This document shows positions 25,682 through 41,353 of a stretch of 64,000 nt of DNA, one piece after another. Position numbers and translations under genes: made by a program. The notes beneath the pieces were generated by a model. It saw only the letters and a list, made by a program, of their open reading frames with translations, was not told the origin of the DNA and did not search any database. Source of the DNA: an uncultured Gammaproteobacteria bacterium (GTDB lineage: Bacteria > Patescibacteriota > Microgenomatia > CAZXEC01); contig CAZXEC010000001.1 in NCBI GenBank assembly GCA_964639595.1, positions 254,498 to 318,497 on the forward strand. Reading direction: 5' to 3'. Numbering within the stretch: position 1 is the first letter of the stretch; the number at the start of each line of letters is the position of its first letter.

Positions 25682-26487
25682 TGGAAATATCTATTATCAT
25701 TGTTTCTTACAATACCAAAGATAAGTTATCTAGCCTGTTGCGATCACTTACTGATGCGGGAATTGGACTGGACTGGCAGGTAATTGTGGTTGATAATGCC
25801 TCAACCGATGGCACAGTTAAGATGCTGGAGCAGCAATTTCCTGACGTCATCCTGGTCAAAAATAACCGGAATTTAGGCTTTGCCAGGGCTTGTAATATTG
25901 GTTTTGCCAAATCAAATGGCCGGTTCTTGTTTTTTTTGAATCCCGACACAGAAATAAAACCGCAGGTGGTGGAAAAATTAGTCGAATTTGCCAGTTATCA
26001 TGCTGATTGTGGCATAGTGGCGCCTCAACTATTAAATGGTGATGGCTCGCCTCAAGCTTCGGTCAGAAACTTGCCCACCCTGTGGCGGGCCATCCGTCAG
26101 TATTGGCTGGGCCAGTTGGGAGTTTATGATTTTTACCTGCCAGGCGGAGCTGCAGTATCGGTAGAGAGTGTGACCGGAGCGGCCATGCTCATTCACCGAA
26201 ATATTTTTGAAAAAGTTGGCGGTTTTGATGAGAGATATTTTATGTATTTTGAAGATTTAGAGTTATGCCGCCAAGTTATCTCCCTGGGCTATAAAATATA
26301 TTACTTACCGCAACTGACCATTGTTCACCACAAAGGCGCCAGCGCCCAAACCATAGGTGGTAAAGCATTCCAGATGCTTAAGATAAGTAGTAAAATATAT
26401 CATGGATGGGCGCAAGCGTTCTTGATTGATGTGGTGATTAGAAGTGGGCGAATATGCAAGAAATTATTAGGTCGAAATACAAAATAG
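25678..26487 (+). CDS. GT2 glycosyltransferase
   Basis: ISIIIVSYNTKDKL, VVDNASTDGT and YFEDLELC motifs. Confidence 0.85.
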   Translation: MMEISIIIVSYNTKDKLSSLLRSLTDAGIGLDWQVIVVDNASTDGTVKMLEQQFPDVILVKNNRNLGFARACNIGFAKSNGRFLFFLNPDTEIKPQVVEKLVEFASYHADCGIVAPQLLNGDGSPQASVRNLPTLWRAIRQYWLGQLGVYDFYLPGGAAVSVESVTGAAMLIHRNIFEKVGGFDERYFMYFEDLELCRQVISLGYKIYYLPQLTIVHHKGASAQTIGGKAFQMLKISSKIYHGWAQAFLIDVVIRSGRICKKLLGRNTK

Positions 26488-28157
26488 CGGTCGTCGTTAT
26501 CCTGGTTTTTGCCGCCTTTATCCGTTTTTTTGGCCTTGATAAAATTCCGCCGGAACTGTTTGGGGATGAGTTGGATGTTGGCTATCAGGCCTATTCCATC
26601 CTCACAACCGGCAAGGATTACCTGGGACATGCCTGGCCGCTTTATTTCCAATCATTTGCCGAAGCCCGGGCGCCGTTGTTTTTATATTCGGCTGTGCCGC
26701 CGGTGGCCGCATTTGGCTTAAACGAATTGGGAATTCGCGCTGCGGCGGCCTTTTTCGGGGTGGTCGGACTGGCGCTGTTGTATTTTGTGACCAAAAAGAT
26801 GTTTGCCGACAAGCCACCGGTGGCCATCCTGGCGCTTATTTTGGGGGCCATTTCTCCCTGGCACTTACAGTATTCCCGAGCCGCTTTTGAAGTCACGCTA
26901 CTGCTATCACTTTTCCTGGCAGGATTGCTGGCCTTCCTGCTGGCTTCTAAAAAACCTGTTTGGCTAATAGTTACTGCCATCACCTGGGCCTTGATGCCGT
27001 ATACTTATAACACGGCCAGTTTATTCTTACCGTTATTCTTACTTATCATAATAATCATCTATTTTGTGGAAATTAAAAGCTGGATCAAGCTGCCTGTTTT
27101 TTGGGCTGCGGCGGTGCTGTTTATGCTGTTGCTCTTGCCTATTATTGGCGAGCAATTTGCCAAAGGGGCAGAAAGATTTGGCAATATTAATATCACCACC
27201 GATGGTTCACAGCAGCTAGAGATTAATCTCAAAAGACAACAGGATGTCAACCTATCGTCGCAGCTGTCGGCCATTTACCACAATAAACCCTTGGCTTGGT
27301 CTTATCTGGCTGCTAAAAATTATGTTACTTCGCTGTCTCCCCAGTTTTTGTTTACCGAAGGCGATCCCAGGATGAGGCATAGTGTTGGTGAGATGGGGGA
27401 GTTTTATTGGTTTCAACTGCCGCTGCTCATTTTAGGTTTGATAACTTTGGCAAAAACAGATCTAAAAGTCAGAGTCTTGCTAATTGCCTGGATATTGCTG
27501 GCGCCGGTGCCTGCCGCCCTGACTCGTGATGGCGGGCATCACGCCACCCGCTTATTTTTGCTGCTGCCGCCCCTGTTGATTATTATGGCATTGGGAGCCA
27601 GCTTTCTTTTTGATTTAGCTAAGAAAAATCTGTCATGGAAGCTTATTGCTTACAGCTTATTGCTTACAGCTGCCTTGAACATAGCTTTTTTTGCCCACCG
27701 TTATTCCGTTCATTATCCCCAGGAATCATGGCGCTGGTGGCAGGTGGGATATAGAGAGGCTTTTGGCGAAATTAAAAAAGTAGCAGGCCAGTATGACCGG
27801 ATTGTCATTAATAATACTTACGAACCGGCCCTGATCCGCTTTTTAGTCTACAACCAATACGATCCGGCGCTTTTCCAGCAGCAATTTGTTCTCGACCAGT
27901 CAATCAAAAATGTCTTGCCGGGCATTGATGGATTTTCTTTGGGCAAATATTATTTTGGCACCTTATCCGGTGATATCAGGCAGAATGGCGGCTTTTCCAA
28001 AGCCATCGCTGATGGCATGCTTTATCTGGCTTCCCAAAGGGACGAAGTGCCTGGAGATCTTAATCTGTCTAAACAACCGCCGGATAATGTTAAAGTCTTG
28101 CAAAAAATCAACAATCCATTTGGTGAGGTGATCTTTTATTTGTTGACCAAAAGATAA
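26454..28157 (+). CDS. PMT/ArnT-like (GT39-type) membrane glycosyltransferase, paralog 1 of 5
   Basis: DELDVGYQAYSIL loop motif and ISPWH motif. Same architecture as 28158, 29807, 31536 and 38850. Confidence 0.7.
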   Translation: MQEIIRSKYKIAVVVILVFAAFIRFFGLDKIPPELFGDELDVGYQAYSILTTGKDYLGHAWPLYFQSFAEARAPLFLYSAVPPVAAFGLNELGIRAAAAFFGVVGLALLYFVTKKMFADKPPVAILALILGAISPWHLQYSRAAFEVTLLLSLFLAGLLAFLLASKKPVWLIVTAITWALMPYTYNTASLFLPLFLLIIIIIYFVEIKSWIKLPVFWAAAVLFMLLLLPIIGEQFAKGAERFGNINITTDGSQQLEINLKRQQDVNLSSQLSAIYHNKPLAWSYLAAKNYVTSLSPQFLFTEGDPRMRHSVGEMGEFYWFQLPLLILGLITLAKTDLKVRVLLIAWILLAPVPAALTRDGGHHATRLFLLLPPLLIIMALGASFLFDLAKKNLSWKLIAYSLLLTAALNIAFFAHRYSVHYPQESWRWWQVGYREAFGEIKKVAGQYDRIVINNTYEPALIRFLVYNQYDPALFQQQFVLDQSIKNVLPGIDGFSLGKYYFGTLSGDIRQNGGFSKAIADGMLYLASQRDEVPGDLNLSKQPPDNVKVLQKINNPFGEVIFYLLTKR

Positions 28158-29810
28158 ATGCCTAAAACATACCTAATATTAATTTTGGTTTTGGCGGCAG
28201 TCTTGAGACTGTCTTTCTTGGGACAATTTCCCGCCGGCTTTTCAGCGGATGAGGCCAATTTCGGCTATACTGCCTATTCAATTTTAAAAACCGGACATGA
28301 CGAGTGGGGAGAGCCGTTGCCTGTTTTCCCCAGGACTTTTGGTGATTTTAAGTCGCCCATTTATATCTACTTAACAGTTCCGGCAATTGCCATTTTCGGC
28401 CTCACAGAATTTGCGGTGCGCCTGCCGGCCGCATTGCTGGGAATATTGTCAGTTGTAATTGTCTATTTTCTGGTTGGAGTTTTATTTAAAGATAATAAAA
28501 GTCAACTGTCAACTGTTAACTGTCAACTGTTGGCCAGTTTCTTGCTGGCCATCTCCCCCTGGCATTGGCCCTTATCCCGGGTGGGCATTGAGACTTCTTT
28601 AATTTCTTTTTTTACTTCGCTGGTTCTTTACAGTTTTATCAAAGCCCAAGCAAACGCCAGATGGTTGGTTGCGGCTCTGGCAGTCGCCTCGTTGGGAGTT
28701 TATTCCACCAATTCCGCCAAATTATTTTTGCCATTGATATCGGCTTTCATGTTAGCGTTTGGCTGGAAGCATTATTGGGCCAATAAAAAAATCCTTTTGA
28801 CCGGTTTGGTTGTATCAGCAGCAATCCTCTTGCCGGCCATCATTCACAGTTCGGCTTTTTCCAGGCGGGCTGCCGATGTATCAATTTTTAATCCGACTGC
28901 CGGCTGGGAAGAGGTGTCCAAAAGACAATTTGAAAGCAACCTGCCCAGAGCCCTGGAGAGAATCTTTACCAATAAATTAACCTATACCCTGGGTGAAGTT
29001 TTCAAAAATTATGTGGGCTATTATTCGCCGCAGTTTTTGTTTACCAACGGCCCGTCCGAGCCGACTTACGGCATGATTCCGGGCCGGGGAGTCTTATATA
29101 TTTTTGAACTGCCGCTGGTCGTTTTGGGCTGGGTATTTTTGTTTGTTGGCAAGCATAAATATCGCTATCTGCTCTTGTTTTGGCTGCTTAGTGCTGCTTT
29201 GCCGGCCGCCCTGTCCAAAACAGCCGAGCATGCCAGTCGGGCAGCCACCTTCCTGCCGTTATGGTCGGTAATTTCTGCTTACGGTTTTTATGAAATTTGG
29301 CAGAGATGGCAGCGCTTGAGATCCTCACGTCTGCTTCAGGCAGCCCTGACACTGGTGCTGGTGTTTTCTGTTGCTTCTTTTGCCAACGACTATTTTTTCC
29401 ATGCTCCCAAAAGATTGGCCCGGTTTATGCATTATGGCGCCAAAGAAACAGTGGCATATTTAAAATCTCAAGAAGCCGCCTACCGCTTGATTATCATGGG
29501 CCAGCCATTTTCCGAAGCCCAAGTGTTTACGGCTTTTTATCAGCCGATTGAGCCGAGAGAATATCAGAAATATGCGCCGCAATTATTAAAATACGAGCAG
29601 GGCGGTCGAACTTTTTTGGACCAGTTGCCAGTTTATACGATCGGCAAGTATGAATATCGGGGTCTTAACTGGAATGATGACAAGACCCTCAAAGGAATGT
29701 TGCTGGTGGGCAAAGCGGCTGATTTTCCGGAAAAAGTTAATGCCCAAAAAATTATTTATGATCCGGCTGGTGAGCCGCTTTATAAAATTGTTGATCCGGA
29801 AAAGTTATGA
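28158..29810 (+). CDS. PMT/ArnT-like membrane glycosyltransferase, paralog 2
   Basis: DEANFGYTAYSIL and ISPWHW motifs. It carries the (GTCAACT)x4 insert. Confidence 0.7.
   Translation: MPKTYLILILVLAAVLRLSFLGQFPAGFSADEANFGYTAYSILKTGHDEWGEPLPVFPRTFGDFKSPIYIYLTVPAIAIFGLTEFAVRLPAALLGILSVVIVYFLVGVLFKDNKSQLSTVNCQLLASFLLAISPWHWPLSRVGIETSLISFFTSLVLYSFIKAQANARWLVAALAVASLGVYSTNSAKLFLPLISAFMLAFGWKHYWANKKILLTGLVVSAAILLPAIIHSSAFSRRAADVSIFNPTAGWEEVSKRQFESNLPRALERIFTNKLTYTLGEVFKNYVGYYSPQFLFTNGPSEPTYGMIPGRGVLYIFELPLVVLGWVFLFVGKHKYRYLLLFWLLSAALPAALSKTAEHASRAATFLPLWSVISAYGFYEIWQRWQRLRSSRLLQAALTLVLVFSVASFANDYFFHAPKRLARFMHYGAKETVAYLKSQEAAYRLIIMGQPFSEAQVFTAFYQPIEPREYQKYAPQLLKYEQGGRTFLDQLPVYTIGKYEYRGLNWNDDKTLKGMLLVGKAADFPEKVNAQKIIYDPAGEPLYKIVDPEKL
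28501..28528 (+). repeat. Heptanucleotide tandem repeat (GTCAACT)x4 with one C>T variant, inside the paralog-2 coding sequence
   Basis: Directly read: gtcaactgtcaactgttaactgtcaact. It encodes SQLSTVNCQ, an insertion relative to paralogs 1 and 3. Confidence 0.85.
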
Positions 29811-31462
29811 TCAAAAAAATTATCTTAATACTGGTAATTGTTCTGGCTGCCCTGCTGCGTTTCTGGCAGCTGTCCGATTACCCGCCGCATGCCAATTGGG
29901 ACGAGGCTTCCCTGGGGTATAACGCCTATTCAATTTTAACTACCGGACGTGACGAGTGGGGGCAGTTTTTGCCTTTGACCTTTCGGGCTTTTGGCGATTA
30001 CAAATTGCCCGGTTATATCTACACTTCCGTGCCGTTTGTGGCCGCTTTTGGCTTAAACGAATTTTCCATCCGTTTTGCCTCGGCTTTTTTTGGCACACTG
30101 ACAGTCCTGCTGGTCTTTTTGTTAGCCAGGCTTTTGACCCGGAAATATTCTCTGGCAACAATTGCGGCCTTCTTGCTGGCCATTTCTCCCTGGCATGTCT
30201 TTTTATCCCGGATTGCCCTGGAAGCCAATCTGGCCCTGTTTTTCCTGGTCTTGGGAATTTTCCTTTTTGTCAAATTTATTACACAGTTTGAGAACAGGAT
30301 AGCACCCCAGCTTATTTTGCTTATCGCTTGCCCCTTGTCCCTTGTTGCTGCTTTATATACTTACAACAGCGCCAGAGTGGTGGTACCATTGTTGGTTTTA
30401 TTACTGGCTGCCAATTATTACTCCCTGCTGAAAAAATTAAAAAAACAGTTGGTACTGATGCTGGTACTTTTGGTGGTTTTATCTGTGCCGGCTTTTTCTC
30501 TGGCCATCAAGCAGGATTCCAGCGCCCGCTATCGTTGGACTGCTATTTTAGACGAGGGGGCAACCAACTTCATCAATGAATCGCGCCGGACCTCTGCCTA
30601 CCCCACACCCCTCAAAGAGCTTGTTTATAACAAAATCACTTATACCCTGCCAAGAGTAGTGGCTGGGTATCTGTCGCATTTTAGCCCGGACTTTTTATAT
30701 TTTAAGGGCGGCAGTAATTTTCAATTTAATATTCCCGGGTTTGGATTGTTTTACCCTCTGGAAATGCCGTTTCTGGTTTTGGGGGTGATGGTGGCTTTCT
30801 GGCAAAAAAGCCCCTGGAGATGGCTGCTTATAGGTTGGATGTTGACCGGCCCCATTCCGGCTGCCATTACCCGTGATGCGCCTCATGCTCTGCGGTCGCT
30901 TTTTATGATGCCCGCCCCGCAGATTTTAGAAGCCTTTGGCCTGTTGTGGTTTTTGGATTCTTTGAAAAAGCCGGTCTTGGAAAGAGCCCTGGCTGTTGGC
31001 TTTGGACTGATTTTTGTGGTCGCCAGTTTTTTCTATTGGCAACTTTATACCAATCTTTACACCAGAGATTATTCCTGGTCCTGGCAATACGGTTATAAAC
31101 AAGCCATTGCTTATGTTGAAAAAAACCAGGACAAATATCAACAGATTATCGTGACCAAAAAATACGGGGAGCCGCATATTTTCCTGTTGTTTTACACTCA
31201 CTATCCGCCGGACCAGTATAGAAACGATCCGCAGCTGAAACGTTACTTTCAAACCGATTGGTACTGGGTAGATAGTTTTTATAAATATCAATTCATCAAT
31301 GACTGGGATATCAAACAAAAGGGGAGAGAAATTCAGATTAAAAAGGGCGGCCAACCAACTCTGCTTGTTGCCAGCCCCGGCAATTATCCGGTTGATGCCA
31401 AATTGGTGGAGAGTATCTATTTCCTGGACGGCAAAAAAGCCTTTGATCTGGTGGAGTTGTAG
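29807..31462 (+). CDS. PMT/ArnT-like membrane glycosyltransferase, paralog 3
   Basis: DEASLGYNAYSIL and ISPWHVF motifs. Confidence 0.7.
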   Translation: MIKKIILILVIVLAALLRFWQLSDYPPHANWDEASLGYNAYSILTTGRDEWGQFLPLTFRAFGDYKLPGYIYTSVPFVAAFGLNEFSIRFASAFFGTLTVLLVFLLARLLTRKYSLATIAAFLLAISPWHVFLSRIALEANLALFFLVLGIFLFVKFITQFENRIAPQLILLIACPLSLVAALYTYNSARVVVPLLVLLLAANYYSLLKKLKKQLVLMLVLLVVLSVPAFSLAIKQDSSARYRWTAILDEGATNFINESRRTSAYPTPLKELVYNKITYTLPRVVAGYLSHFSPDFLYFKGGSNFQFNIPGFGLFYPLEMPFLVLGVMVAFWQKSPWRWLLIGWMLTGPIPAAITRDAPHALRSLFMMPAPQILEAFGLLWFLDSLKKPVLERALAVGFGLIFVVASFFYWQLYTNLYTRDYSWSWQYGYKQAIAYVEKNQDKYQQIIVTKKYGEPHIFLLFYTHYPPDQYRNDPQLKRYFQTDWYWVDSFYKYQFINDWDIKQKGREIQIKKGGQPTLLVASPGNYPVDAKLVESIYFLDGKKAFDLVEL

Positions 31463-31535
31463 ATAAATTAAGAATTGATAATTTACTCCACTTCGTCCGT
31501 CAGCCAACGGACTACGATGGGCACAGCAATTTACA

Positions 31536-33263
31536 ATGACGAGCAAAATATTATTTGCAACTATTTTATTGATTGCCTTTGTGTTGCGGTTCTGGCAACT
31601 GGGCCAGTCTCCCAGCCTGTATTGGGACGAGCCGGCCATCGGCTACAATGCCTATTCCATTCTGACCACCGGCCGTGACGAGTATGGCAATGTCTTCCCC
31701 TTCACCTTCCGCTCATTTGATGACTATAAAGCTCCCGGCTATATTTATCTGACAGTCCCGTCTGTTGCTATTTTTGGCCTCACAGAATTTGCCGTTCGCT
31801 TCCCCTCGGCCCTGCTGGGAGTGTTAACCGTGGCGCTAGTTTATTTCTTAGTGGGAGAGCTACTTAAATTAGGTCGCAGTCAGCAGTCCAGCAGTCAGCG
31901 GTTTGCTGTTTGCTGTCAGCTGTTATCTATGGCCTCGCTGGCCATCTCCCCCTGGCACATCCATGTTTCTCGGATTGGCTTTGAAGCCAACGCCGCCGTA
32001 TTTTTCCTGACTCTGGGCATATTTCTATTCGTCAAGTTTATTGACGAATCCAAGAGTCAAGCCCCGCGAAGTCCGTCGGCTGACGGACGAAGTAGGGCTA
32101 CGTCTACCTTCTTGCTTATCGCTTTCCCCTTGCCCCTTATCGCTTCTTTATATACTTATCACAGCTCCAGATTATTAATACCGCTTCTTCTTACGGTATA
32201 TTTGATATTTTTCTGGAAAAAGTTCAATAAACAACTTCTGGTTAAGTTGGCGCTGGTGGTGTTAGTTTTATTAATCCCGCTTGCTCTTGTGATGCTGCGT
32301 CCGGAAACTCAAAACAGGGTGATTTGGTCCAGTCTTTTTTCCTACCAGCGGCCACCTGAAGAAATTAACCGGTTGGCTCAAATTGATCAGGCCCAAAGGC
32401 AAGATTTATCTTTTGGCCTATTGCATTCGGAGCCGGAATATTTTACCAAGGGTTTCCTGTCGCGCATGACCAATCATCTCTCGCCGATATTTTTATTCCT
32501 GAAAGGCGATGATAATCAGCGGTTGGGATTTGGCACCGTCGGTATTTATTATCTGTTTGAACTGCCGTTTTTTATACTGGGTGTCGTCTTTTTAACAAAG
32601 CATAAAACCACGGCTGTAATTTTATTACCTTGGTTTTTATTGGGAATTTTGCCGGCGGCACTGACCCGCGACCAAACTAACCTGCTCCGATCCCTCAACG
32701 CTTATGTGGCGGGAAATATCATCATCGGTTTGGGCGCGGCTTCGTTTTACCAGTACCTAACAGCCGGAAAAGTATTGGTCAGATCAGTAATTTTTATTCC
32801 CATGGCCGGTCTGATCTTGTGGAATGTGGGGTTTTTCCTGGATAATTATTTCGTCCATTACGCCAACAGAACCGCCCCATATTGGCAATATGGCTATAAG
32901 CAGGTAGTATCCAAGGTTTCAGCTTTGCAAGATAAATATGACAAGATTTACGTCTCCACCGACTACGGCCAGCCTTATATTTATTTCTTGTTTTACCAAA
33001 AATATCCGCCGGCCAAATATCAGCCGCAAGCCAGGCTTGTCAAAGACCCCCACAGCGTTGATGTGGGTGAAGGTGCCGGATATGATAAATTTGAGTTTCG
33101 CAAACTTTACTGGCCGGCTGATCGGGGTTTGAGAAAGAGTTTGTTTGTCGGCTCGCCGGAACAGCTGCCGGAAAAAGACATTGACCCCAAAGAGGCCCGC
33201 ATCATTGACCGTGTGTATTTCCCCAACGGCCCGGAGGCCTTTAGAATAGTGGAGACGTTATAA
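31536..33263 (+). CDS. PMT/ArnT-like membrane glycosyltransferase, paralog 4
   Basis: DEPAIGYNAYSIL and ISPWHIH motifs. It contains two low-complexity inserts (31877-31920 and 32065-32095). Confidence 0.7.
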   Translation: MTSKILFATILLIAFVLRFWQLGQSPSLYWDEPAIGYNAYSILTTGRDEYGNVFPFTFRSFDDYKAPGYIYLTVPSVAIFGLTEFAVRFPSALLGVLTVALVYFLVGELLKLGRSQQSSSQRFAVCCQLLSMASLAISPWHIHVSRIGFEANAAVFFLTLGIFLFVKFIDESKSQAPRSPSADGRSRATSTFLLIAFPLPLIASLYTYHSSRLLIPLLLTVYLIFFWKKFNKQLLVKLALVVLVLLIPLALVMLRPETQNRVIWSSLFSYQRPPEEINRLAQIDQAQRQDLSFGLLHSEPEYFTKGFLSRMTNHLSPIFLFLKGDDNQRLGFGTVGIYYLFELPFFILGVVFLTKHKTTAVILLPWFLLGILPAALTRDQTNLLRSLNAYVAGNIIIGLGAASFYQYLTAGKVLVRSVIFIPMAGLILWNVGFFLDNYFVHYANRTAPYWQYGYKQVVSKVSALQDKYDKIYVSTDYGQPYIYFLFYQKYPPAKYQPQARLVKDPHSVDVGEGAGYDKFEFRKLYWPADRGLRKSLFVGSPEQLPEKDIDPKEARIIDRVYFPNGPEAFRIVETL

Positions 33264-33265
33264 TT

Positions 33266-33733
33266 ATGGGAGATATCCGTGAACTAGTTAAACAAGTTTT
33301 AGAGAAAGGCTATCTGATCAGTCTGGCCACAGTTGATGATGATGGCGTATGGGTGGCAGATGTGATTTATGTTTTTGATGAGACCTTTGATATTTATTGG
33401 ATGTCGCAAGAAAACGCTCGGCATTCTCAAGCTCTCCTAAAAAACAGTCAGGTAGCAGGAGCAATTACTGTAACCACCAAACCACAAGAAGACGATATCG
33501 GATTGCAGCTGGAAGGCAGAGCGGAGAAGATCGAGGGTGATATCTGGGAAATTGCCATCAAACATCGACTCAAAAGAGGCAAGCCAGCTCCCATCAAAGA
33601 GGGCGAGGCTCTTGATGCAGGAGAATCATGGTATAAATTAAAGCCTGCCAGAATTGAATTGATCTATCAGTCTAAATTTGGCTTTGAGAGAAAAAGTTTG
33701 AGTTTAGTTACCTATCACACCCTTAGGGTGTGA
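33266..33733 (+). CDS. Pyridoxamine-5'-phosphate-oxidase-like FMN-binding protein (general stress protein 26 family)
   Basis: Small split-barrel fold pattern (LISLATVDDDGVWVADVIYVFDE ... YWMS). It lies 3 nt downstream of paralog 4. Confidence 0.65.
   Translation: MGDIRELVKQVLEKGYLISLATVDDDGVWVADVIYVFDETFDIYWMSQENARHSQALLKNSQVAGAITVTTKPQEDDIGLQLEGRAEKIEGDIWEIAIKHRLKRGKPAPIKEGEALDAGESWYKLKPARIELIYQSKFGFERKSLSLVTYHTLRV
33716..33732 (+). terminator. Palindromic hairpin CACACCC-TTA-GGGTGTG overlapping the stop codon, followed by a second TTAGGGTGTG copy at 33738-33747
   Basis: Read directly. A related palindrome occurs at 38765-38779 on the other side of the CRISPR-Cas cassette. Confidence 0.35.
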
Positions 33734-33752
33734 TAGATTAGGGTGTGCAAGT

Positions 33753-34244
33753 GTGCTCAATTCATTCGAACCTGGGGAAATCCGGCTTAAAAAATTATTA
33801 AATACAATGCCTGTCGAACATGGTCTATCTCTGCCGGAAACAGAACTGGATAAACTGCGTCATCTAAAAGAGCGGTTAGTGGGAGAAGACCGCTTAAAAT
33901 TCAACATTGGCAGGCTATGCTTATCTTATGTCCGATTCCGAGTCTATGTGGAAGCAATCACCAGTGCCGAGGCATCTTTGCCAGAACGGGCGTGCCAATC
34001 CATAGAATTTGTGGATGGGATACTCAAGCATTGCCTTGCCAATACTTTCACTTCTATACTGCGGACGGAAAATCCAGACCTGATAGGTTACGCCACACTA
34101 TTATTGGAGCAACAGCGAGGTTTTCTTAACGGCGATCTTGACTATTTGACTTTTCCCATTCCATTCAGTCATGGCATGGACATTCAGGGTCTGCTGTGGA
34201 GTAATCCTGAAGCGGAAACCCGCAAACCGGAGAGCTGGCGGTGA
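33753..34244 (+). CDS. Hypothetical protein (163 aa, GTG start) immediately upstream of the CRISPR array
   Basis: ORF only, with no recognisable motif. It ends 18 nt before repeat 1. Confidence 0.35.
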   Translation: MLNSFEPGEIRLKKLLNTMPVEHGLSLPETELDKLRHLKERLVGEDRLKFNIGRLCLSYVRFRVYVEAITSAEASLPERACQSIEFVDGILKHCLANTFTSILRTENPDLIGYATLLLEQQRGFLNGDLDYLTFPIPFSHGMDIQGLLWSNPEAETRKPESWR

Positions 34245-34262
34245 AAGAGAAACTAATAGACA

Positions 34263-34811
34263 GTTGCATTCCTTAATTCTTCTTAAGAGGTTCTGCAGGC
34301 TGTTTATACAAATCGAGTTCTATCTCCATACTTAGTTGCATTCCTTAATTCTTCTTAAGAGGTTCTGCAGGGCGTCAAAACGAGCTGGTTAAGTTGAAGT
34401 CTTAACGGTTGCATTCCTTAATTCTTCTTAAGAGGTTCTGCAGGCAAAAAGGGACGCATAACTGCATCCCGTAATTTAAGTTGCATTCCTTAATTCTTCT
34501 TAAGAGGTTCTGCAGGTTCTGATATATAATAGTTAAAAGAAGCCCGAAGTTGAAGTTGCATTCCTTAATTCTTCTTAAGAGGTTCTGCAGGTTCTAATAA
34601 TAACTGCTTAAACCCTCGTTTACTTCCAAAGTTGCATTCCTTAATTCTTCTTAAGAGGTTCTGCAGGTTAAATGCAGCTATGAAATATCATGGAGAATTT
34701 GGTTGCATTCCTTAATTCTTCTTAAGAGGTTCTGCAGGGGTGATGGCACCGCCAAAACAGGTGTTGAAGATATAGTTGCATTCCTTAATTCTTCTTAAGA
34801 GGTTCTGCAGG
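34263..34811 (-). CRISPR. CRISPR array of 8 identical 37-bp repeats (plus strand GTTGCATTCCTTAATTCTTCTTAAGAGGTTCTGCAGG) and 7 spacers of 34-39 bp
   Basis: Repeats start at 34263, 34335, 34408, 34480, 34555, 34631, 34702 and 34775. An internal CTTAA/TTAAG stem is present. The minus-strand transcription call is inferred from the cas gene orientation and from the repeat reverse complement ending in AAGGAATGCAAC (see findings). Confidence 0.95.
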
Positions 34812-35095
34812 AGCTCTGAATTTGAGGCTAAGAATTGACCTTTTAACCCCCAAATTTTTAGTGAACCCCTTTTCTGCATAAAATATGTCAAGGTTCGCAG
34901 ATTCTCTGTAAAACCCAAAGAGAAGAACTAAAAATTGTAGTGTTCAGTCCACTTTAGTCCTAAGGGGCTAAAGTTTTCCTATTGCTTTTGAACGGTAACG
35001 AGGACCTAAAGCAAGCCCACTCTACTGCTGTGCAACACAGCCCTTGCATAATTCTCAAGCATATAGCTGAGAACTCGTCGTTAAAAACGATAATA
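34812..35095. ncRNA. Non-coding region between the array and the effector gene; candidate leader and tracrRNA locus
   Basis: 284 bp without a plausible ORF. It contains repeat-like fragments: TCAAGGTTCGCAGATTCTC (34888-34906) and CTTGCATAATTCTCAAGC (35043-35060, resembling the repeat 5' half with two short deletions), plus a GCTGTG-CAA-CACAGC hairpin (35026-35040). Confidence 0.3.
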
Positions 35096-36853
35096 TCAGA
35101 TTTTTATCTCTTTGTAAAGCGCATTTGCGATATTGATTGCGGCATTTAGATCGGCATTCATATTATGGCCACATTCTCGATTAACACATCTAAAAAAACC
35201 TTTGTTTCTGTCACCAGTCTTATGACACATTGAACATATTTGCGATGTATACTCTGGATTTATAAATCTTATCGGTATTCCGGCTTTCAAGGCTTTGTAT
35301 TCAATGAGTTTTTGTAGTTTACCATAAGAAAAATTTGATAGCATAAATCTTATTTTTCTTTCTTGTAATGCAGTTCCTTTCTTGATTCTTTTTTCTCCTT
35401 GGGTAATTTTTAGCTTTTCCATTGCAATCACGATTGGTTTTAATTCTTTGGCCTGATTAACAATTTGTCTTGAAAAGTTATGGAGCATATAATCTGAAAT
35501 TCTAGCTACTTTTTTCCCAAACTGCGCCCGACGTTTATTCACACCTTTTGTCCCCGTAAACTTTTTCCTAATGAGCTGGTACTTTGTCTTTTGGGCCATT
35601 AATCCGTGGCCAGGATAAAATTTGATGAAGCAAGGTTTACCATTGGGTTTATCGACCACAGCCGTAACAGCCGTCTGATTAACGCCTCTATCTATACCCA
35701 TAATTTTAGTCTTGCTATCTATTTTCGGTTCCTCAAATTCTTGAACTAGAGGATAGCTGAGGTAAAAATTGCCCCGTTTTCTTAGCAATAGAGGATATTT
35801 AAGCTCTCCCTCTTTAATTTTTCTTATGATATCCAGAAACCAACTCTTATTTTTTTCTGATTTTATAGTATTAACGATCAGAGTAAATTTCTCTTGTTTG
35901 CCATCAATACTCAATTTCACAAATTGCTCGTTAATATCTTTTACAGATGTGTTTTGTAAATCGACAATATTCCCCTTGAAAAGTACTTTTGTTTCTTTGA
36001 GTCTTTTTTGAAGCTTTTCAATGGTTTTATTTAACGCTTCTATGGTCCCTCGTATTGTAGATTCCGTTTTACCTCTTGATGGATTCTCCTTAAAAAGAAT
36101 ATGTTTATAGCGATCAACTCTTTGGTTTTGCTGACGAGGTAATGTAAATCTACTTGTAGTGTTTTTTTGTTTTATTTCATCTTTTAATCGATTTAAAACA
36201 TCTAACACTCCTGCGTTATTTTTGTAACGTTCTAACCATTTTTTGAGAGTAGTTGATGCGATCTTGTCATTATCTAAAACTTCTTGCCATTCAATTGCTC
36301 GACGTTGCGTTATAAAAATAGTTGAGTACACATTATTTAATTGTTTTTTGTATGAATTCAGCGTATCGTTTGCGCGTTTAAAAGCTAACGCATACTCTGT
36401 GCCGGGCAATTTGACAGCATCTCTCACATCTCCATATTGGCTACGTTTTCTATTGCCTGTTGCATATAAAATCTTTCTAATTGAGAATTCTTTATTCCAA
36501 CATTTGCCACAAACTAATTCTATGCCGTCCTTCTTTTTGCGGATTATTAATGATTTCTGCCCACAAGTCTTACATATTTTATTACGGTCGTTCCTGTTCT
36601 TACCTTCTGGTTTGTGCCCTTTGCAGGATACATAACTTTTTAAGCAATAAGAGCACTTTCCATTCAATCCTTGGCTGCCACCTGTGTCCTTTTTAATAAA
36701 CTCATAATTGTTTCGTTGACCCTCTTCTACTATTTGAATTTTTTTCGCAAAAAAGTTGACAGCCTTACTAAATCTACTAAAGTATGACTCTAAAAAATCT
36801 TCCTGTGTTAAAGTAGGAACAAACTTAAAACTATATGAGGTAGTAAGTTTCAT
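35096..36853 (-). CDS. Compact type V effector, TnpB-like Cas12f/Cas14-like nuclease (585 aa)
   Basis: RuvC-I (IMGIDRGVNQTAV), RuvC-II (IVIAMEKLK) and RuvC-III (NADLNAAINIANALY) motifs. A CxxC...CxxC zinc finger (YTSQICSMCHK ... CVNRECGH) sits between RuvC-II and RuvC-III. There is an extra N-terminal Cys-rich zinc ribbon (CSYC ... CKTCGQ ... CGKCW). It is located between cas4 and the array. Confidence 0.85.
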   Translation of the reverse strand: MKLTTSYSFKFVPTLTQEDFLESYFSRFSKAVNFFAKKIQIVEEGQRNNYEFIKKDTGGSQGLNGKCSYCLKSYVSCKGHKPEGKNRNDRNKICKTCGQKSLIIRKKKDGIELVCGKCWNKEFSIRKILYATGNRKRSQYGDVRDAVKLPGTEYALAFKRANDTLNSYKKQLNNVYSTIFITQRRAIEWQEVLDNDKIASTTLKKWLERYKNNAGVLDVLNRLKDEIKQKNTTSRFTLPRQQNQRVDRYKHILFKENPSRGKTESTIRGTIEALNKTIEKLQKRLKETKVLFKGNIVDLQNTSVKDINEQFVKLSIDGKQEKFTLIVNTIKSEKNKSWFLDIIRKIKEGELKYPLLLRKRGNFYLSYPLVQEFEEPKIDSKTKIMGIDRGVNQTAVTAVVDKPNGKPCFIKFYPGHGLMAQKTKYQLIRKKFTGTKGVNKRRAQFGKKVARISDYMLHNFSRQIVNQAKELKPIVIAMEKLKITQGEKRIKKGTALQERKIRFMLSNFSYGKLQKLIEYKALKAGIPIRFINPEYTSQICSMCHKTGDRNKGFFRCVNRECGHNMNADLNAAINIANALYKEIKI

Positions 36854-36855
36854 CG

Positions 36856-37452
36856 TTAGTTAATATTCTTATAACAATTATCAATTGCTTTTCTCTTATT
36901 CCTTGTCCCCTTTGGTAATCTTTCTGATTGTATTATACTCTCAATCTCGTTAAAAATCTTTAATAATTCATCTTTTAGTGCTTTTGTAATCCTTACCCTT
37001 ATAAAGTCCCCTGATTTTAGAAACTTAACAAAACCAAACGGCACTTTATATCCTAACCTCTCTTCTATTAATAAAGCCTCCATGATAACCTGAAATTTTT
37101 GTGACAGATACAAAAATTTAGGTTTTGAACTATATTTTACTTGAATAGGATAAGCTTCATGTAGTTTTTTGTTAATTGCAACACAATCTACCTTTGTAGA
37201 GATTTTATACTTACTAGATGTCAAGTATACGTCATATATTTTAGCTAAAAACGGCAACTCTTTGATTACCTTATTTCTTCTTGACTTTCTAGAGAATTCG
37301 ACATATTTTTGCCTACCCTCGATTTCCTTAATTGTTGTAGCTTGGGGAATTTTGAGGACGTGAATGTAATATATAATTCTAGGATCATAAAGGTAATTCA
37401 TTAAGTCGGTGGCTGTTAAATAATTTTGCATCGGTTTAAATAAATATAACAT
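36856..37452 (-). CDS. cas4: Cas4-like PD-(D/E)xK nuclease-fold protein lacking the Fe-S cysteine cluster
   Basis: The N-terminus YLTATDLMNYLYDPRIIYY matches the Cas4 hTGTDhxxYxYCPR signature with Cys replaced by Asp. There is a central VDCVAI ... PIQVKY motif and a QKFQVIMEALLIEE motif (QhxxY-like). Only one C-terminal Cys is present instead of the usual three. It overlaps cas2 by 17 nt. Confidence 0.6.
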   Translation of the reverse strand: MLYLFKPMQNYLTATDLMNYLYDPRIIYYIHVLKIPQATTIKEIEGRQKYVEFSRKSRRNKVIKELPFLAKIYDVYLTSSKYKISTKVDCVAINKKLHEAYPIQVKYSSKPKFLYLSQKFQVIMEALLIEERLGYKVPFGFVKFLKSGDFIRVRITKALKDELLKIFNEIESIIQSERLPKGTRNKRKAIDNCYKNIN

Positions 37453-37720
37453 CTCTATTTTTTATTAAAAACTCATTGGCCGGCCCGAATGCAATCCTCT
37501 TTGAAAACTCCTCCTCACTTGATGGGAAGATGAGAACCTTGTCATTTTTTGATTTCATTATCTTTTTAATCTCTAAACTTAGCATTTCTGCCTTATTTCT
37601 AGTCAAATTTCCTGAAAAGGCACTTTTTTGTATCCGTTTTAACCCGTAATCCTTACAGAGATTGGATACTTTACTCCGAATATTATTTTTGGAAATATCG
37701 TAGATAACCCAATAGACCAT
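37436..37720 (-). CDS. cas2: Cas2 (94 aa)
   Basis: MVYWVIYDIS ... N-terminus with the catalytic Asp, typical length, and position between cas1 and cas4. Confidence 0.85.
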   Translation of the reverse strand: MVYWVIYDISKNNIRSKVSNLCKDYGLKRIQKSAFSGNLTRNKAEMLSLEIKKIMKSKNDKVLIFPSSEEEFSKRIAFGPANEFLIKNRDVIFI

Positions 37721-37724
37721 AGTC

Positions 37725-38714
37725 CTACTTATAAATATAAGGTGAAAAATCTCTTTTATTACCTAATAGATATGCAGAAATTTCCCTAGTCTGTGCAAGT
37801 ATGATATCTCTCAAAATTAATTTCTTACCTTTGTAAGTAAGTTTGGTATTTAGTCTGTTGATTACAGCTTGAATTAGTTTTCTTTTACCTTTTTGTGATA
37901 GTGTGAGATCACCGGTTTTATCAAAATCCTTACCATTAATCTGTTTCCTATTAAACAATGTGACTATCGCTCTGTCCGAAATAGCTACTCTAAATAACTC
38001 TGTGACGTCTAAGACCAGTGACGGTTTACCGTATCTATCTGTATGATAGAAGCCCAAGTATGGGTCAAGTCCAGCTATAATGCAGGCTCTCTCAACTTCA
38101 GAATAGAGCATGCCATATGCATAATTTAGGCAGACATTAAACATGTCTTCACCGTTTTTATTTCTTTTGGTAAATCCTGTTATAAGCCCCAGGCCCCTGA
38201 AGTATTTTGCTGCAGTTGCCCCCTCCACTCCTAAAAGTGTGCTTCTTAGTTTATCAATAGGATTACTAGTAATGAGCTTGCTTTTTGGGAATTTTGTTTT
38301 GCTTAACTGATTTAATTGTGTATTAGTTTTTCTGTCTTTTGACAGAGATTTCAAATAATTAATCTGACTTCTAATTTTGCCTTCAACGAATTTAACAATT
38401 AGATGCTTCCCCTTTTTTGATAAATATGCCTCAAGTTGTTTTCTACGAGTTAAGGTCGTTCCACCCATATATGGACTATACGTTCTGGCGAAGGGTTTCC
38501 CTTTCCAATCTAGATAAACAATATCAATATGCTTTTCAATGGCTAACTTTACAGCTTCTGTGGAGATACTGGCAGGGGCGGTAAATAACACTTGTCTGAT
38601 TGTATCAGCTGAATATTCACTTTTTTTACCTTTATTATTTACTATCAGCCTATTACCAGACTTAGTTAGGTAAGTTCCAACTTCTTCTATTGCAAGAACA
38701 GAGTTATTAATCAT
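37725..38714 (-). CDS. cas1: Cas1 integrase (329 aa)
   Basis: Typical Cas1 layout with a conserved acidic/His cluster (NYAYGMLYSEVERA ... GFYHTDRYGKPSLVLDVTELFR). It is the first gene of the minus-strand cas1-cas2-cas4-cas12 operon. Confidence 0.9.
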   Translation of the reverse strand: MINNSVLAIEEVGTYLTKSGNRLIVNNKGKKSEYSADTIRQVLFTAPASISTEAVKLAIEKHIDIVYLDWKGKPFARTYSPYMGGTTLTRRKQLEAYLSKKGKHLIVKFVEGKIRSQINYLKSLSKDRKTNTQLNQLSKTKFPKSKLITSNPIDKLRSTLLGVEGATAAKYFRGLGLITGFTKRNKNGEDMFNVCLNYAYGMLYSEVERACIIAGLDPYLGFYHTDRYGKPSLVLDVTELFRVAISDRAIVTLFNRKQINGKDFDKTGDLTLSQKGKRKLIQAVINRLNTKLTYKGKKLILRDIILAQTREISAYLLGNKRDFSPYIYK

Positions 38715-38722
38715 AGGTAGAT

Positions 38723-38751
38723 ATTATAGGACTAAGTGAGTAATATTTCAA
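38723..38751 (-). promoter_or_regulatory. Candidate sigma70 promoter for the cas operon (minus strand TTGAAA-17 nt-TATAAT); the -10 element ends 8 nt before the cas1 ATG, implying a leaderless or near-leaderless transcript
   Basis: The reverse complement of 38715-38751 reads TTGAAATATTACTCACTTAGTCCTATAATATCTACCT followed by ATG. Confidence 0.4.
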
Positions 38752-38764
38752 GCCTATACATGGT

Positions 38765-38779
38765 ACACCCTTGGGGTGT
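38765..38779. repeat. Palindrome ACACCC-TTG-GGGTGT, related to the 33716-33732 palindrome
   Basis: Read directly. It lies in the divergent intergenic region between cas1 and paralog 5. Confidence 0.3.
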
Positions 38780-38849
38780 GAAATTTGTGCAAAAGTTTAA
38801 GTTGGCAAAGCCGGGCAGTTTTAGCGAGAATTTGCTAGAATCTTAAGTA

Positions 38850-40556
38850 ATGGATAAAAAGGGGCTGGTAAACTGGCTGTTTGTGGCTGTGGTGGCACTG
38901 GCTGTGGTCTTGCGGTTGTATAACCTGACCCAATATCCGCCGGGGTTTACGGCTGATGAGGCGGCCATTGGCTATAATGCCTATTCGCTGCTGCAGACCG
39001 GCCGTGATGAATACGGCACGCCCTGGCCTCTGGTGTTCCGCTCCTTTGATGACTATAAACCCCCGTTATATTTCTATTTAGTGCTGCCGTTTATGGCCGT
39101 GTTGGGGCCAACCGAGCTGGCAGTGCGGCTGCCGTCGGCCTTGTTGGGGATTGGAACAGTTGTTTTGGTATATTTTCTGGCAAAGAGACTTGCTTACAGC
39201 CGACAGCAGATAGCCGACAGCTATATGCCACTGGCAGCCAGTTTCCTGCTGGCAATCAACCCCTGGCATCTGCACTATTCACGCGGCGGCTGGGAAGCCA
39301 ACGCCGGCACCTTCTTTTTGACCCTTGGCATATTTCTATTCGTCAAGTTTCTTGCAGATTCCCAATTAGCCACGCAAGGCGTCCCCTTGCGAAGCTATAG
39401 TAGCAGGGGGCCGTTATTGTTACTGATTGCTTCTGTCTTGTCTCTGATTGCCGCTTTCTACACTTATCACAGCATCAGGGTGGTGGCGCCGGTGCTGTTT
39501 GCCCTCTATGCAATACTTTTTTGGCGACAGCTCTGGCCGGCAAAAAAGGCGGTCATTTGGGCAGTGATGGCAGGAGGAGCGTTGCTTATTCCCCTGGCTC
39601 TGCAGTTTGTGTCAGGCAGTGGGGCAGCCCGCTTTGCCGGAGTGGGCATCTTTGCCGATAGCGGACCCTTTTGGCAGGTTAATCAGGCCCGGGGGGAACA
39701 TGCCAACCTAACAGGTATTGATGCCCGACTGTTCCATAATAAAGTAGCCGCCTACACCTTAAGTTTTGCCGGGCATTACCTGGATCATTTCACTGGCCAG
39801 TTCCTGTTTTTTGGCGGTGATGCCATTGGCCGCAATAACGTGCCGGAGATGGGCCAGCTGTATGTCTGGGAAATATTGACTTTAATAATTGGCTTGTGGC
39901 TGGCGGCCAGACAAGGTGGGCTACCAGCTAAAATAGTTTTGCCCTGGCTGCTTATTGCCCCGCTGGCAGCCTCACTGACCTTCCAGACGCCCCATGCTCT
40001 GCGGGCTGCCAACATGGCCGTGCCCCTGGCAATAATCTCCGGCTATGGCCTGTCTGTCCTCTTGGCCTGGATTTGGCAAATTCGCCGGGCAGCTGCGCGC
40101 TATTTGTTACTGCTGCTTACTGCCAGCTGTCTGCTGTTGGCTTTTGTTAAGTATCTGCACCAGTATTATGTCCATATTTCCCAGGAGCGGGCCCTGGAAT
40201 GGCAGTATGGTTTTGACCAATTGGTGCCGTTTGTGCTTGCCAAGCAAGATCAGTATAATAAGGTGGTCATAACCGATCGGTACGACCAGCCCTACATTCT
40301 CATGTTATTCTATTCAAAGTACGATCCCGCCCAATACCAACCCCAGGCCCAACTCTCCAGCCGCGACCGGTTTGGTTTTGGCACGGTGCGGGCTTTTGAC
40401 AAATATGAATTTAGACACATCACTCCCGATGAAGTAGAAAAGGCCACAAATACCCTGTTTGTCTTATCCGGTGATGAAGTTTATGAAGGAGTTAGTGTGC
40501 AAAAGACCATTGCCTTCCCCAATGGGAAGGTGGCTTTTGCCATGGTGGAAAAATGA
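38850..40556 (+). CDS. PMT/ArnT-like membrane glycosyltransferase, paralog 5
   Basis: DEAAIGYNAYSLL and INPWHLH motifs. It shares an identical 24-nt stretch (GGCATATTTCTATTCGTCAAGTTT) with paralog 4 (32018 vs 39320). Confidence 0.7.
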   Translation: MDKKGLVNWLFVAVVALAVVLRLYNLTQYPPGFTADEAAIGYNAYSLLQTGRDEYGTPWPLVFRSFDDYKPPLYFYLVLPFMAVLGPTELAVRLPSALLGIGTVVLVYFLAKRLAYSRQQIADSYMPLAASFLLAINPWHLHYSRGGWEANAGTFFLTLGIFLFVKFLADSQLATQGVPLRSYSSRGPLLLLIASVLSLIAAFYTYHSIRVVAPVLFALYAILFWRQLWPAKKAVIWAVMAGGALLIPLALQFVSGSGAARFAGVGIFADSGPFWQVNQARGEHANLTGIDARLFHNKVAAYTLSFAGHYLDHFTGQFLFFGGDAIGRNNVPEMGQLYVWEILTLIIGLWLAARQGGLPAKIVLPWLLIAPLAASLTFQTPHALRAANMAVPLAIISGYGLSVLLAWIWQIRRAAARYLLLLLTASCLLLAFVKYLHQYYVHISQERALEWQYGFDQLVPFVLAKQDQYNKVVITDRYDQPYILMLFYSKYDPAQYQPQAQLSSRDRFGFGTVRAFDKYEFRHITPDEVEKATNTLFVLSGDEVYEGVSVQKTIAFPNGKVAFAMVEK

Positions 40557-41353
40557 ACAGAGTTTCTGTGGCCATTGCCACTTTTAACGAAGAGAAAAAT
40601 ATTGTGGACTGTCTGGAGTCGGTCCGCCAGCTGGCGGATGAAATTGTTGTGGTGGACGGATCATCATCTGATCAGACAGTGGAGTTGGCGCGGCGCTTTA
40701 CCGATAAAATAATTATCAAAGACAACCCCCAGATGTTTCACATCAACAAAAATGCGGCCATTGATTACTGTAGCGGCGATTGGATTTTACAGCTGGATGC
40801 AGACGAACGGGTCAGCGCAGCCCTAGCGGCAGAAATTAAAAAAATTGCCCAAGAAGGGTCTGTATACGATGGATTTTGGATTAAGCGCAGAAACTTTTTT
40901 TTGGGTCGATGGATGAGAAAGACCGGCATGTATCCGGACCCGGTGATTAGGCTTTTCAAAAACGGCACAGGCAGACTGCCGGAAAAAAGTGTCCATGAAC
41001 AAATAGAAATTGCCGGCAAAGTCAGCGCTCTTACCAATGATTTGATTCATTTGGCAGATCCCAATTTTTCCCGCTACCTGTTGCGCTCCAACCGATATAC
41101 CACGCTGACTGCCCGGGAATTTTTACAGCAGGAGGTGGGAACAGGAGTCTGGCCGATTATCAAATACCTGTTTTTCTTGCCAGCGGCGCGGTTTTTACAG
41201 CTGTATGTCAGACACAAAGGTTTTGCCGACGGTTTTGCCGGTTTGGTGTTCTCATTTTTTTCCGGACTGCATATCGCAACTGCATATATTAAGTATTGGG
41301 AGGCAAAACATGAAGGTGGCGCTGGACACATCTCCCTTGACGAGTGGGCATAG
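40553..41353 (+). CDS. GT2 glycosyltransferase (WaaE/KdtX-like)
   Basis: VSVAIATFNEEKNI ... EIVVVDGSSSDQT and LQLDADER. Confidence 0.8.
   Translation: MNRVSVAIATFNEEKNIVDCLESVRQLADEIVVVDGSSSDQTVELARRFTDKIIIKDNPQMFHINKNAAIDYCSGDWILQLDADERVSAALAAEIKKIAQEGSVYDGFWIKRRNFFLGRWMRKTGMYPDPVIRLFKNGTGRLPEKSVHEQIEIAGKVSALTNDLIHLADPNFSRYLLRSNRYTTLTAREFLQQEVGTGVWPIIKYLFFLPAARFLQLYVRHKGFADGFAGLVFSFFSGLHIATAYIKYWEAKHEGGAGHISLDEWA

Follow-up and report, generated by a model that had tools for sequence, protein, structure and literature searches.

Inserts in a loop of tandem GT-C glycosyltransferase paralogs of Microgenomates as probable in-frame heptanucleotide coding microsatellites

Five tandem genes for predicted membrane glycosyltransferases, three of which carry short extra segments at one and the same loop, raise the question of whether such segments tune the enzymes or are a trace of the way in which they arose. 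The genes lie in a stretch of 64,000 nucleotides (nt) of contig CAZXEC010000001.1, in the following called the window, and are named P1 to P5 according to their order. The original prediction, which was made from the letters of this stretch, had proposed a rapid diversification of an exposed loop, perhaps with a change in the specificity for acceptors or donors in surface glycosylation. The analysis described here favors another answer: with a probability of roughly 60%, the inserts are in-frame heptanucleotide coding microsatellites, which were made and homogenized by slippage or copy-choice and are tolerated in cytoplasmic loops. The underlying repeat arrays are in frame, they are gained, lost or homogenized between strains, and they occur lineage-wide.

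All five paralogs are intact open reading frames (ORFs) on the plus strand, i.e., P1 at 26454-28157 (567 amino acids, aa), P2 at 28158-29810 (550 aa), P3 at 29807-31462 (551 aa), P4 at 31536-33263 (575 aa), and P5 at 38850-40556 (568 aa). P2 to P5 are 29-32% identical to P1, a divergence at which synonymous sites are saturated; 62 alignment columns are invariant, and the motifs DE, GY.AYS.L and (I)SPWH are kept in all of them. The gathering score of the Pfam family PMT_2 was exceeded by P1 to P3 (30.5 bits for P1) and that of PMT by P3 to P5, so that the assignment to a PMT/ArnT-like family was corroborated. The insert site lies between ...VYFLV..L and (I)SPWH, in the predicted cytoplasmic loop 1 (CL1; the topology is treated below). 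In P3 this loop has a basal length of 28 aa from VF..L to ISPWH, and P1 is near-basal with one additional residue. Relative to P3, extra residues are present in P2 (SQLSTVNCQ), in P4 (SQQSSSQRFAVCCQ; CL1 longer by 12 aa) and in P5 (SRQQIADSY; longer by 6 aa).

Both the DNA and the alignment verified that these three inserts were built from short tandem repeats at a single loop. In P2 the unit GTCAACT is present 4.3 times with one mismatch (28501-28530, TRF score 53; like the arrays of P1, P3, P4, P5 and the GT2 gene given below, on the plus strand), and the array encodes SQLSTVNCQL. In P4 the array (GCAGTCA)x3.3 at 31876-31899 is adjoined by (GTTTGCT)x3.4 at 31901-31924, the last unit of which, GTCAGCT, resembles the P2 unit. 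The middle unit of the first P4 array has 8 nt, with an extra C, and by simple arithmetic the 7 + 8 = 15 added nt would keep the frame. The P5 insert is also repeat-built, but instead of two contiguous copies of a 9-nt unit, as had been read originally, 39198-39221 contains the 10-nt repeat AGCCGACAGC at 39198-39207 and 39212-39221, i.e., with a period of 14 (2x7), encoding SRQQIADS.

The arrays of the window are not confined to CL1. P1 contains a perfect (AGCTTATTGCTTAC)x2.3 at 27640-27671, at the predicted cytoplasmic start of transmembrane (TM) helix 11, and P3 a weak (CTTGTCC)x2.7 at 30327-30345, at the position of CL2/TM5, which taken alone is near chance level. A perfect (AGTTGTC)x4.4 at 11839-11869 belongs to a GT2 gene (11736-12626), where it encodes LSVVSCQLSVV just before a VVDNAS motif; its length is the same as in orthologs, and a Woesebacteria homolog reads LSVVGYQLSVVVV there. 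In P2 and P4, which have 550-575 codons, the 7-nt units are found at codons ~115-125, and in the GT2 gene at codons ~35-45 of 296. Two loci of the window (11839 and 28501) had 19 or more matches in 21 successive lag-7 comparisons, and no such locus occurred in 200 composition-preserving block shuffles, showing that arrays of this strength did not arise by chance.

The variability of the arrays was assessed with a related strain (SRR22387912), which has 85-86% nucleotide identity to the window over 32 kb of alignment. Its P2 ortholog (85%) lacks exactly 7 aa, corresponding to 21 nt or three units (FKSDK-ISLISAF, compared with FKDNKSQL[STVNCQL]LASF in the window). The perfect arrays of P1 TM11 and of the GT2 gene at 11839-11869 are matched in this strain by degenerate arrays of equal length (the GT2 ortholog is 86% identical). 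Taken together, the 21-nt loss in P2 and the equal-length degenerate counterparts indicate that the arrays are gained or lost in 21-nt steps and that they are also homogenized without any length change. The other indels of at least 7 nt in these 32 kb were an intergenic one of 11 nt and, in another GT2 gene, a GC-rich hairpin insert of 26+4 nt. The contigs of four further samples of the same project (five samples in all) were 99.99-100% identical to the window and were thus uninformative on polymorphism. Within clusters of proteins with 90% identity no copy-number variation was found and the CL1 loops were identical; the length variants that had been noticed in these clusters were all alternative start codons or fragments. 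The postulated hypervariability was therefore upheld only in part: loop length does vary in the expanded family, and the 85% identical P2 ortholog differs by 21 nt, but copy number was stable in the five samples and in the 90% clusters.

In the favored scenario, a local 7-nt unit would be copied in tandem to about four to five units, and replication slippage or copy-choice would be the likely process. Copying would either add 21 nt (7 aa) or overwrite adjacent sequence at constant length, and a reading-frame filter would let only the step from one to four units, or overwriting, persist. The products would survive only where extra residues are harmless, which in these enzymes would be the cytoplasmic side, with the loops CL1 and CL2, the points at which TM7 and TM11 start, and the N-terminal tail. 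Accordingly placed inserts would be nearly neutral, and their influence on substrate specificity would most likely be small or absent.

The latter point depends on the side of the membrane to which CL1 belongs. A search of the PDB sequences with the family profile yielded nothing at E <= 1e-3, and ArnT was found only at E = 0.15, which made a fold search necessary. To this end, an AlphaFold2 (AF2) model of P2 built from a 64-sequence alignment was used (pLDDT 91.1, pTM 0.91). It comprises 11 TM helices and a C-terminal domain, and Foldseek matched it with a probability of 1.00 to AglB, PglB, STT3, ArnT, ALG9, Pmt4 and Pmt1, with TM-scores of ~0.5. In P2 numbering, TM1 (residues 2-18) is followed by the outer loop EL1 (19-83), which has juxtamembrane helices at 30-45 and 67-80 and holds the DE motif, by TM2 (84-109), by the short loop CL1 with the insert site (110-115), and by TM3 (116-131), which ends in SPWH, the counterpart of '...LFAVHPIHT' in TMTC3. 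The outer loop EL2 (132-145) with an SR..E motif, TM4 to TM11 (146-424), and the C-terminal domain (425-550), predicted to be outside, complete the model. The inserts had been placed directly after the third TM segment, and they do follow the third hydrophobic segment. However, a juxtamembrane helix accounts for the second hydrophobic segment, so that the helix preceding the inserts is structurally TM2.

According to the scheme described for ArnT and TMTC proteins, EL1 connects TM1 and TM2, EL2 connects TM3 and TM4, and the TM2-TM3 loop is cytoplasmic; TM3 terminates in an 'HP.H' motif, and EL2 carries D158 of ArnT (PMC7801869). The residues D31/E32 of P2, which are invariant across the 64-sequence alignment and in all five paralogs, lie in the first outer loop and are conceptual counterparts of D55/E56 of ArnT and D77/E78 of Pmt1 (PMC7801869). 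The density of lysine and arginine is 0.20-0.35 in CL1 to CL5; for the outer loops and the C-terminal domain it is 0.00-0.13. An N-in/C-out orientation with the active-site loops facing outward is thus consistent with the AF2 helix count, the positive-inside rule and the ArnT/TMTC description. Because the AF2 helix map fits this scheme and the positive-inside rule agrees with it, CL1 is predicted to be a cytoplasmic loop, and the same is predicted for CL2.

The family resembles the GT-C_A enzymes ArnT, PMT and TMTC (GT83/GT39) in the DE motif of the first outer loop, the number of TM helices (11-13), the outer C-terminal domain, basic residues that are conserved in EL3 and EL5, the Pfam matches to PMT/PMT_2 and the Foldseek hits, among them 5f15, 5ezm and 6p25. 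In contrast to them, it has marginal sequence similarity to solved structures and occurs as sets of five to seven tandem paralogs, which are typical of Microgenomates.

An adaptive diversification that tunes acceptor or donor specificity would agree with the wide variation of loop length in the family, the difference between strains and the strong expansion of the family. However, the lysine- and arginine-rich TM2-TM3 loop is predicted to be cytoplasmic, opposite to the DE motif, EL2, EL4 and the C-terminal domain, and with the active site and the C-terminal domain on the other face an effect of the inserts on specificity is unlikely. In addition, the insert sequence is set by a 7-nt unit read in three frames and not by peptide selection, and similar arrays are present in unrelated proteins, in other cytoplasmic segments and in a GT2 gene. 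The predicted location, together with the lineage-wide class of coding microsatellites described below, argues against a tuned, exposed specificity loop, and this explanation is considered to be highly improbable. It was to be given up if the inserts mapped to a cytoplasmic linker that does not vary between strains; the loop is indeed predicted to be cytoplasmic, yet it does vary between strains.

The occurrence of the inserts in the whole family was surveyed by a scan of species-representative genomes, which yielded 80 Microgenomates loci; in total 84 loci were analyzed. They contained 353 family members, and up to seven tandem paralogs were found per 13.6 kb, so that a set of five is normal. 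About 45% of 120 homologs have extra residues at CL1. The length of this loop has its mode at 28 aa, 113 of 341 loops have at least 30 aa, and the extra length reaches up to 43 aa. Several of the inserts are literal translations of heptamers in all three frames, e.g., KLEIGNWKLEI of (AAATTGG)n and SPITNHQS of (TCACCAA)n, and the units are highly diverse within and between genomes. The period was 7 or 14 in 18 of the 20 strongest tandem repeats of the loop DNA. Over 1.04 Mb, 37 arrays with period 7 were detected, compared with 3, 4, and 5 arrays for the periods 6, 8, and 9, respectively, and 12 of the 37 fell in the CL1 loop, which represents 3% of the bases. The perfect period-7 runs had a background at 7-13 nt, none had 14-19 nt, a single one had 20 nt, and a cluster was found at 23-29 nt, equivalent to three additional units. 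When 57 arrays with period 7 or 14 were placed on the model, 54 mapped to cytoplasmic loops or to helices starting there (CL1/TM3 18, TM11 14, CL2/TM5 12, N-terminus 5, CL3/TM7 4, CL4 1), and only 3 to the outer 55% of the protein.

Among the genome loci, the longest heptamer array is a perfect (AGATTTA)x8.9 followed by (AAAATTT)x3.9 (L068:976-1077). It is situated upstream of GT-C genes, is not contained in any long ORF and represents an unconstrained non-coding example. Many records of metagenome-assembled genomes with Microgenomates GT-C arrays (L006-L085) are titled 'uncultured Gammaproteobacteria', 'Pseudomonadales' or 'Clostridia bacterium', and these titles are probably wrong taxonomic labels. 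At NCBI, the name Candidatus Daviesbacteria (Microgenomates, candidate phyla radiation, CPR) is given to the entries that are identical to P2 and to one of the window's GT2 proteins; the entry identical to P2 reads 'glycosyltransferase family 39 protein [Candidatus Daviesbacteria bacterium]'.

Heptamer arrays also exist far beyond this family. An exact metagenome scan for (AAATTGG)3.7 yielded at least 120 loci, and the matches listed comprise 121 arrays, to which the following counts refer. The array length peaked at 30-33 nt (79 of the 121), and 106 arrays were located, in both orientations, in ORFs with a length of 100 aa or more, on contigs with GC contents of 0.27-0.65. None of these array-bearing ORFs encodes a GT-C family member; the hosts include leucine-tRNA ligase (LeuRS; four contigs), SecA and MutS, each of which exceeded its equivalog cut-off. 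Arrays of more than 34 nt made up 5 of the 106 coding arrays, but 6 of the 15 non-coding ones. Often the arrays are compound or have degenerate arrays next to them, as is the case in P4. Two candidate explanations were dismissed. A mobile cassette behind the common flanks of some AAATTGG arrays was not retained because these flanks are themselves degenerate heptamer arrays of related units, with a sharp downstream edge and otherwise unrelated flanks. AAATTGG as a privileged or templated unit was discarded after a comparison in viral contigs, in which four heptamers had 3-7 loci each and control stop-free units behaved similarly; in the same contigs two octamer units had 0 loci and two hexamer units ~100.

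As the unit length is not a multiple of three, and as a precedent exists, phase variation is the obvious alternative. The arrays would then be contingency loci, in which slipped-strand mispairing of heptamers switches glycosyltransferases stochastically ON and OFF and varies surface glycosylation. The precedent is neuO, the gene for the capsule O-acetyltransferase of Escherichia coli K1 on phage CUS-3, with its poly-psi variable number tandem repeat: (AAGACTC)n lies in the coding region, and the gene is ON only if n is divisible by 3 (PMC13001214). The likeness extends to the 7-nt tandem unit in the 5' coding region of a surface-glycan enzyme, to reading in three frames, so that three units yield a 7-aa repeat, and to the restriction of the reading frame to certain copy numbers (PMC13001214). 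The arrays of the window are also positioned within the first 20-25% of the length of glycosyltransferase genes, arrays are gained, lost and homogenized between strains, and the loss of one of several redundant paralogs should be tolerable. Nevertheless, the reading frame speaks against switching. Every array of at least four units within family genes sits in an intact ORF of ~550 aa, the ~40 strong arrays in family genes included no out-of-frame allele, and 106 of the 121 metagenomic arrays listed are in long ORFs. A candidate OFF allele in Woesebacteria RBG_16_40_11 (P0128, L004) turned out to be a scaffold gap of Ns that only appeared as a split gene. In contrast, neuO has 3-53 copies and is OFF in 65.6% of genomes (PMC13001214), i.e., in about two thirds, and its copy number varies within cultures. 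The window arrays have only about four units, are always in frame and showed no copy-number polymorphism in the five samples, the assemblies of which are identical, as are the loops within the 90% clusters. Similar arrays in the essential genes for LeuRS, SecA and MutS further show that they are not restricted to dispensable surface genes. Contingency loci are therefore a doubtful explanation, and classical phase variation of the heptamer arrays is unlikely.

Several observations weigh against the view that the arrays are merely tolerated microsatellites. Selection for the frame alone does not explain why 7 nt should be preferred over 4, 5, 8 or 10 nt, and arrays that replace sequence at equal length do not fit simple stepwise slippage. 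The topology is a prediction from the model, the positive-inside rule and homology, and the strain comparison rests on one close relative, with no close ortholog compared for P4 and P5. Difficult for neutral processes are identical perfect arrays amid diverged flanks. Three LeuRS orthologs share the same perfect 32-nt (AAATTGG)-type array with sharp edges (L096:4765-5090, L101:657-982, L163:4555-4880; RSEGA.I.F-PISNFQFP-IE.FTTRPDT), in which 32 of 32 columns are invariant, and their flanks are saturated and only ~65-75% identical. Two further loci (L116 and L129) have flanks with 70-74% identity and a perfect 33-nt array in both, and paralogs of locus L006 that are 34-43% identical contain the same perfect array. 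Other LeuRS sequences do not retain the peptide encoded by the LeuRS array, so that selection at the protein level cannot explain this identity. The identity across species hints at an active homogenization or a constraint at the nucleotide level; homogenization within arrays, recurrent expansion of conserved seeds (K-L-E-I-L = AAATTGGAAATTCT), and nucleotide-level constraint are possible causes. In the LeuRS genes L096:2794-5637, L113:294-3320 and L126:1618-4539 it was also seen that the bacterial LeuRS model matches in two stretches with an insertion of ~150-200 aa in between. This insertion has a Nudix-box-like motif, e.g., GGIEEGQTPETAARAELQEEVGY, and looks like a Nudix-like domain inside LeuRS.

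These identical arrays would fit an upkeep that is more specific than slippage, be it a DNA or RNA element at the nucleotide level within the coding sequence, a copy-choice or templated repair activity devoted to the arrays, or ectopic conversion between arrays at dispersed sites. A [CT]TGTC[AG][AG]-like core, which is common to the window arrays, points in the same direction, and so does the preference for four units, which is also found in intergenic heptamers of Xanthomonas and Nostoc (PMC4692102). On the other hand, the units are very diverse, AAATTGG was no better than control units in viral contigs, the P2 array is missing from the nearest relative, and no candidate enzyme or binding partner was identified. 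This alternative is thus rated as rather improbable. A more far-reaching version is put forward only as a speculation, with a small but appreciable chance of being correct. It states that arrays of about four units are actively maintained in Microgenomates/CPR-type genomes and are re-made or homogenized at the same paralog or ortholog sites, with perfect identity across species even in LeuRS, by a lineage-specific copy-choice or templated mechanism or by a nucleotide-level constraint, and that in dispensable GT-C paralogs of these episymbiotic bacteria they additionally allow on/off switching of glycosylation at low frequency.

The loop after the FVKF motif, i.e., CL2, had been described as variable as well. 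This was found to be true, but the extra length in P4 (~17 aa) and P5 does not stem from tandem repeats; it stems from GC-rich palindromes, namely GTCCGTC-GGCT-GACGGAC (32071-32088) within the P4 insert and CGCAAGG-CGTCC-CCTTGCG (39373-39391) within the P5 insert, both on the plus strand. A near-copy of the P4 palindrome is present at 31495-31512 in the spacer between P3 and P4, with ~37 nt in common. Small GC-rich palindromes with 5-7-bp stems thus form a second class of in-frame insert. Further hairpins were seen within the CL1 array of locus L005 (~2860-2885) and, as a 30-nt insert specific to the related strain, in its GT2 gene (L209 9380-9420, window 11163-11173).

By analogy with Rickettsia palindromic elements, the inserts could be footprints of small elements, mobile or selfish, whose insertion keeps the reading frame. 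The palindromes in CL2 of P4 and P5, the 37-nt near-copy upstream of P4, the 30-nt hairpin in another glycosyltransferase gene of the related strain and the hairpin within the CL1 array of L005 would agree with this notion. However, the CL1 inserts consist of tandem local units without common ends or terminal repeats, and the P4 palindrome has only two copies within the 64-kb window, so that an origin from mobile elements appears to be very unlikely.

Coding microsatellites that are kept in frame, the favored explanation, have counterparts in several known repeat systems besides neuO. Heptamers are over-represented among long simple sequence repeats (SSRs) of many bacteria, according to a 2007 survey as it is cited in the literature on heptamer repeats (PMC4692102; PMC2670836). 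The heptameric SSRs, or short tandemly repeated repetitive (STRR) sequences, of cyanobacteria and Xanthomonas share with the Microgenomates arrays a lineage-specific excess of 7-nt units and a preference for about four units (PMC4692102; PMC2670836); for Xanthomonas and Nostoc no general mechanism was offered for either feature (PMC4692102; PMC2670836). In these organisms most of the repeats lie between genes, are G-rich (G-quadruplex) or form hairpins, and they are under-represented in ORFs. In contrast, the Microgenomates arrays are overwhelmingly in ORFs, AT-rich or mixed, and frame-constrained. The amino acid tandem repeats (aaTRs) of Borgs are also recent perfect nucleotide tandem repeats in ORFs that add probably disordered peptide without breaking the frame (PMC9879509). 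However, their in-ORF units have lengths that are multiples of three, with many copies, whereas in the window the unit has 7 nt and the frame is kept via the number of units or via overwriting. The arrays thus belong to the known non-triplet coding SSRs and heptameric bacterial repeats, as a variant of these.

The surroundings of the paralogs comprise a long glycosylation cluster with GT2 and GT4 genes, many GT-C-like membrane proteins, a Polysacc_synt-family protein and YfhO, and glycosylation functions fill almost the whole window (1-64000). Besides P1 to P5, at least nine GT-C-like or YfhO-like multi-span proteins are encoded, e.g., at 409-1959, 2686-4263, 4269-5957, 15914-17188, 17192-19528, 20173-22110, 22101-23510, 24428-25681, and 42331-43446. 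This context supports the prediction that the paralogs transfer sugars from a polyprenyl-phosphate donor, and they would then represent an ordinary tandem GT-C set of Microgenomates, dependent on polyprenyl-phosphate sugars, inside a large glycosylation cluster. For P4, the best match in the protein database apart from identical copies was only 43% identical. At the 3' end of a GT4 gene (41205-42338), a 23-nt unit x1.9 and (AGGGATA)x4.7 with 73% matches overlap at 42191-42254, a short way upstream of the next gene, which starts at 42331. The gap between P4 and P5 is occupied by a type V-F-like CRISPR-Cas island of low GC content (34262-38714; GC 0.32-0.38 compared with ~0.46 in the flanks), which splits the paralog array. 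It contains a CRISPR array with eight copies of the 37-nt repeat GTTGCATTCCTTAATTCTTCTTAAGAGGTTCTGCAGG (34262-34811), a Cas12f/TnpB-like effector of 585 aa on the minus strand (35096-36853; Pfam Cas12f1-like TNB, 73 bits; best PDB matches TnpB/Cas12f with E 1e-15 to 1e-6), and Cas4, Cas2 and Cas1. The Logan contigs of the organism of the window are all broken at this CRISPR array.

If the inserts are tolerated coding microsatellites, what looked like a hypervariable specificity loop would be a mutational signature. In Microgenomates, short arrays of 7-nt units would be a main route by which proteins gain or rewrite segments of 7-10 residues, and in GT-C membrane enzymes they would be natural markers of permissive sites. 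For the annotation and alignment of CPR proteins it follows that peptides with a periodicity of 7 aa, such as KLEIGNWKLEI, FPISNFQFPIS or SQLSTVNCQL, should be treated as repeat-derived insertions and not as functional motifs. The chief value of the locus lies in the general phenomenon of heptamer arrays in CPR genomes and in their unexplained conservation.

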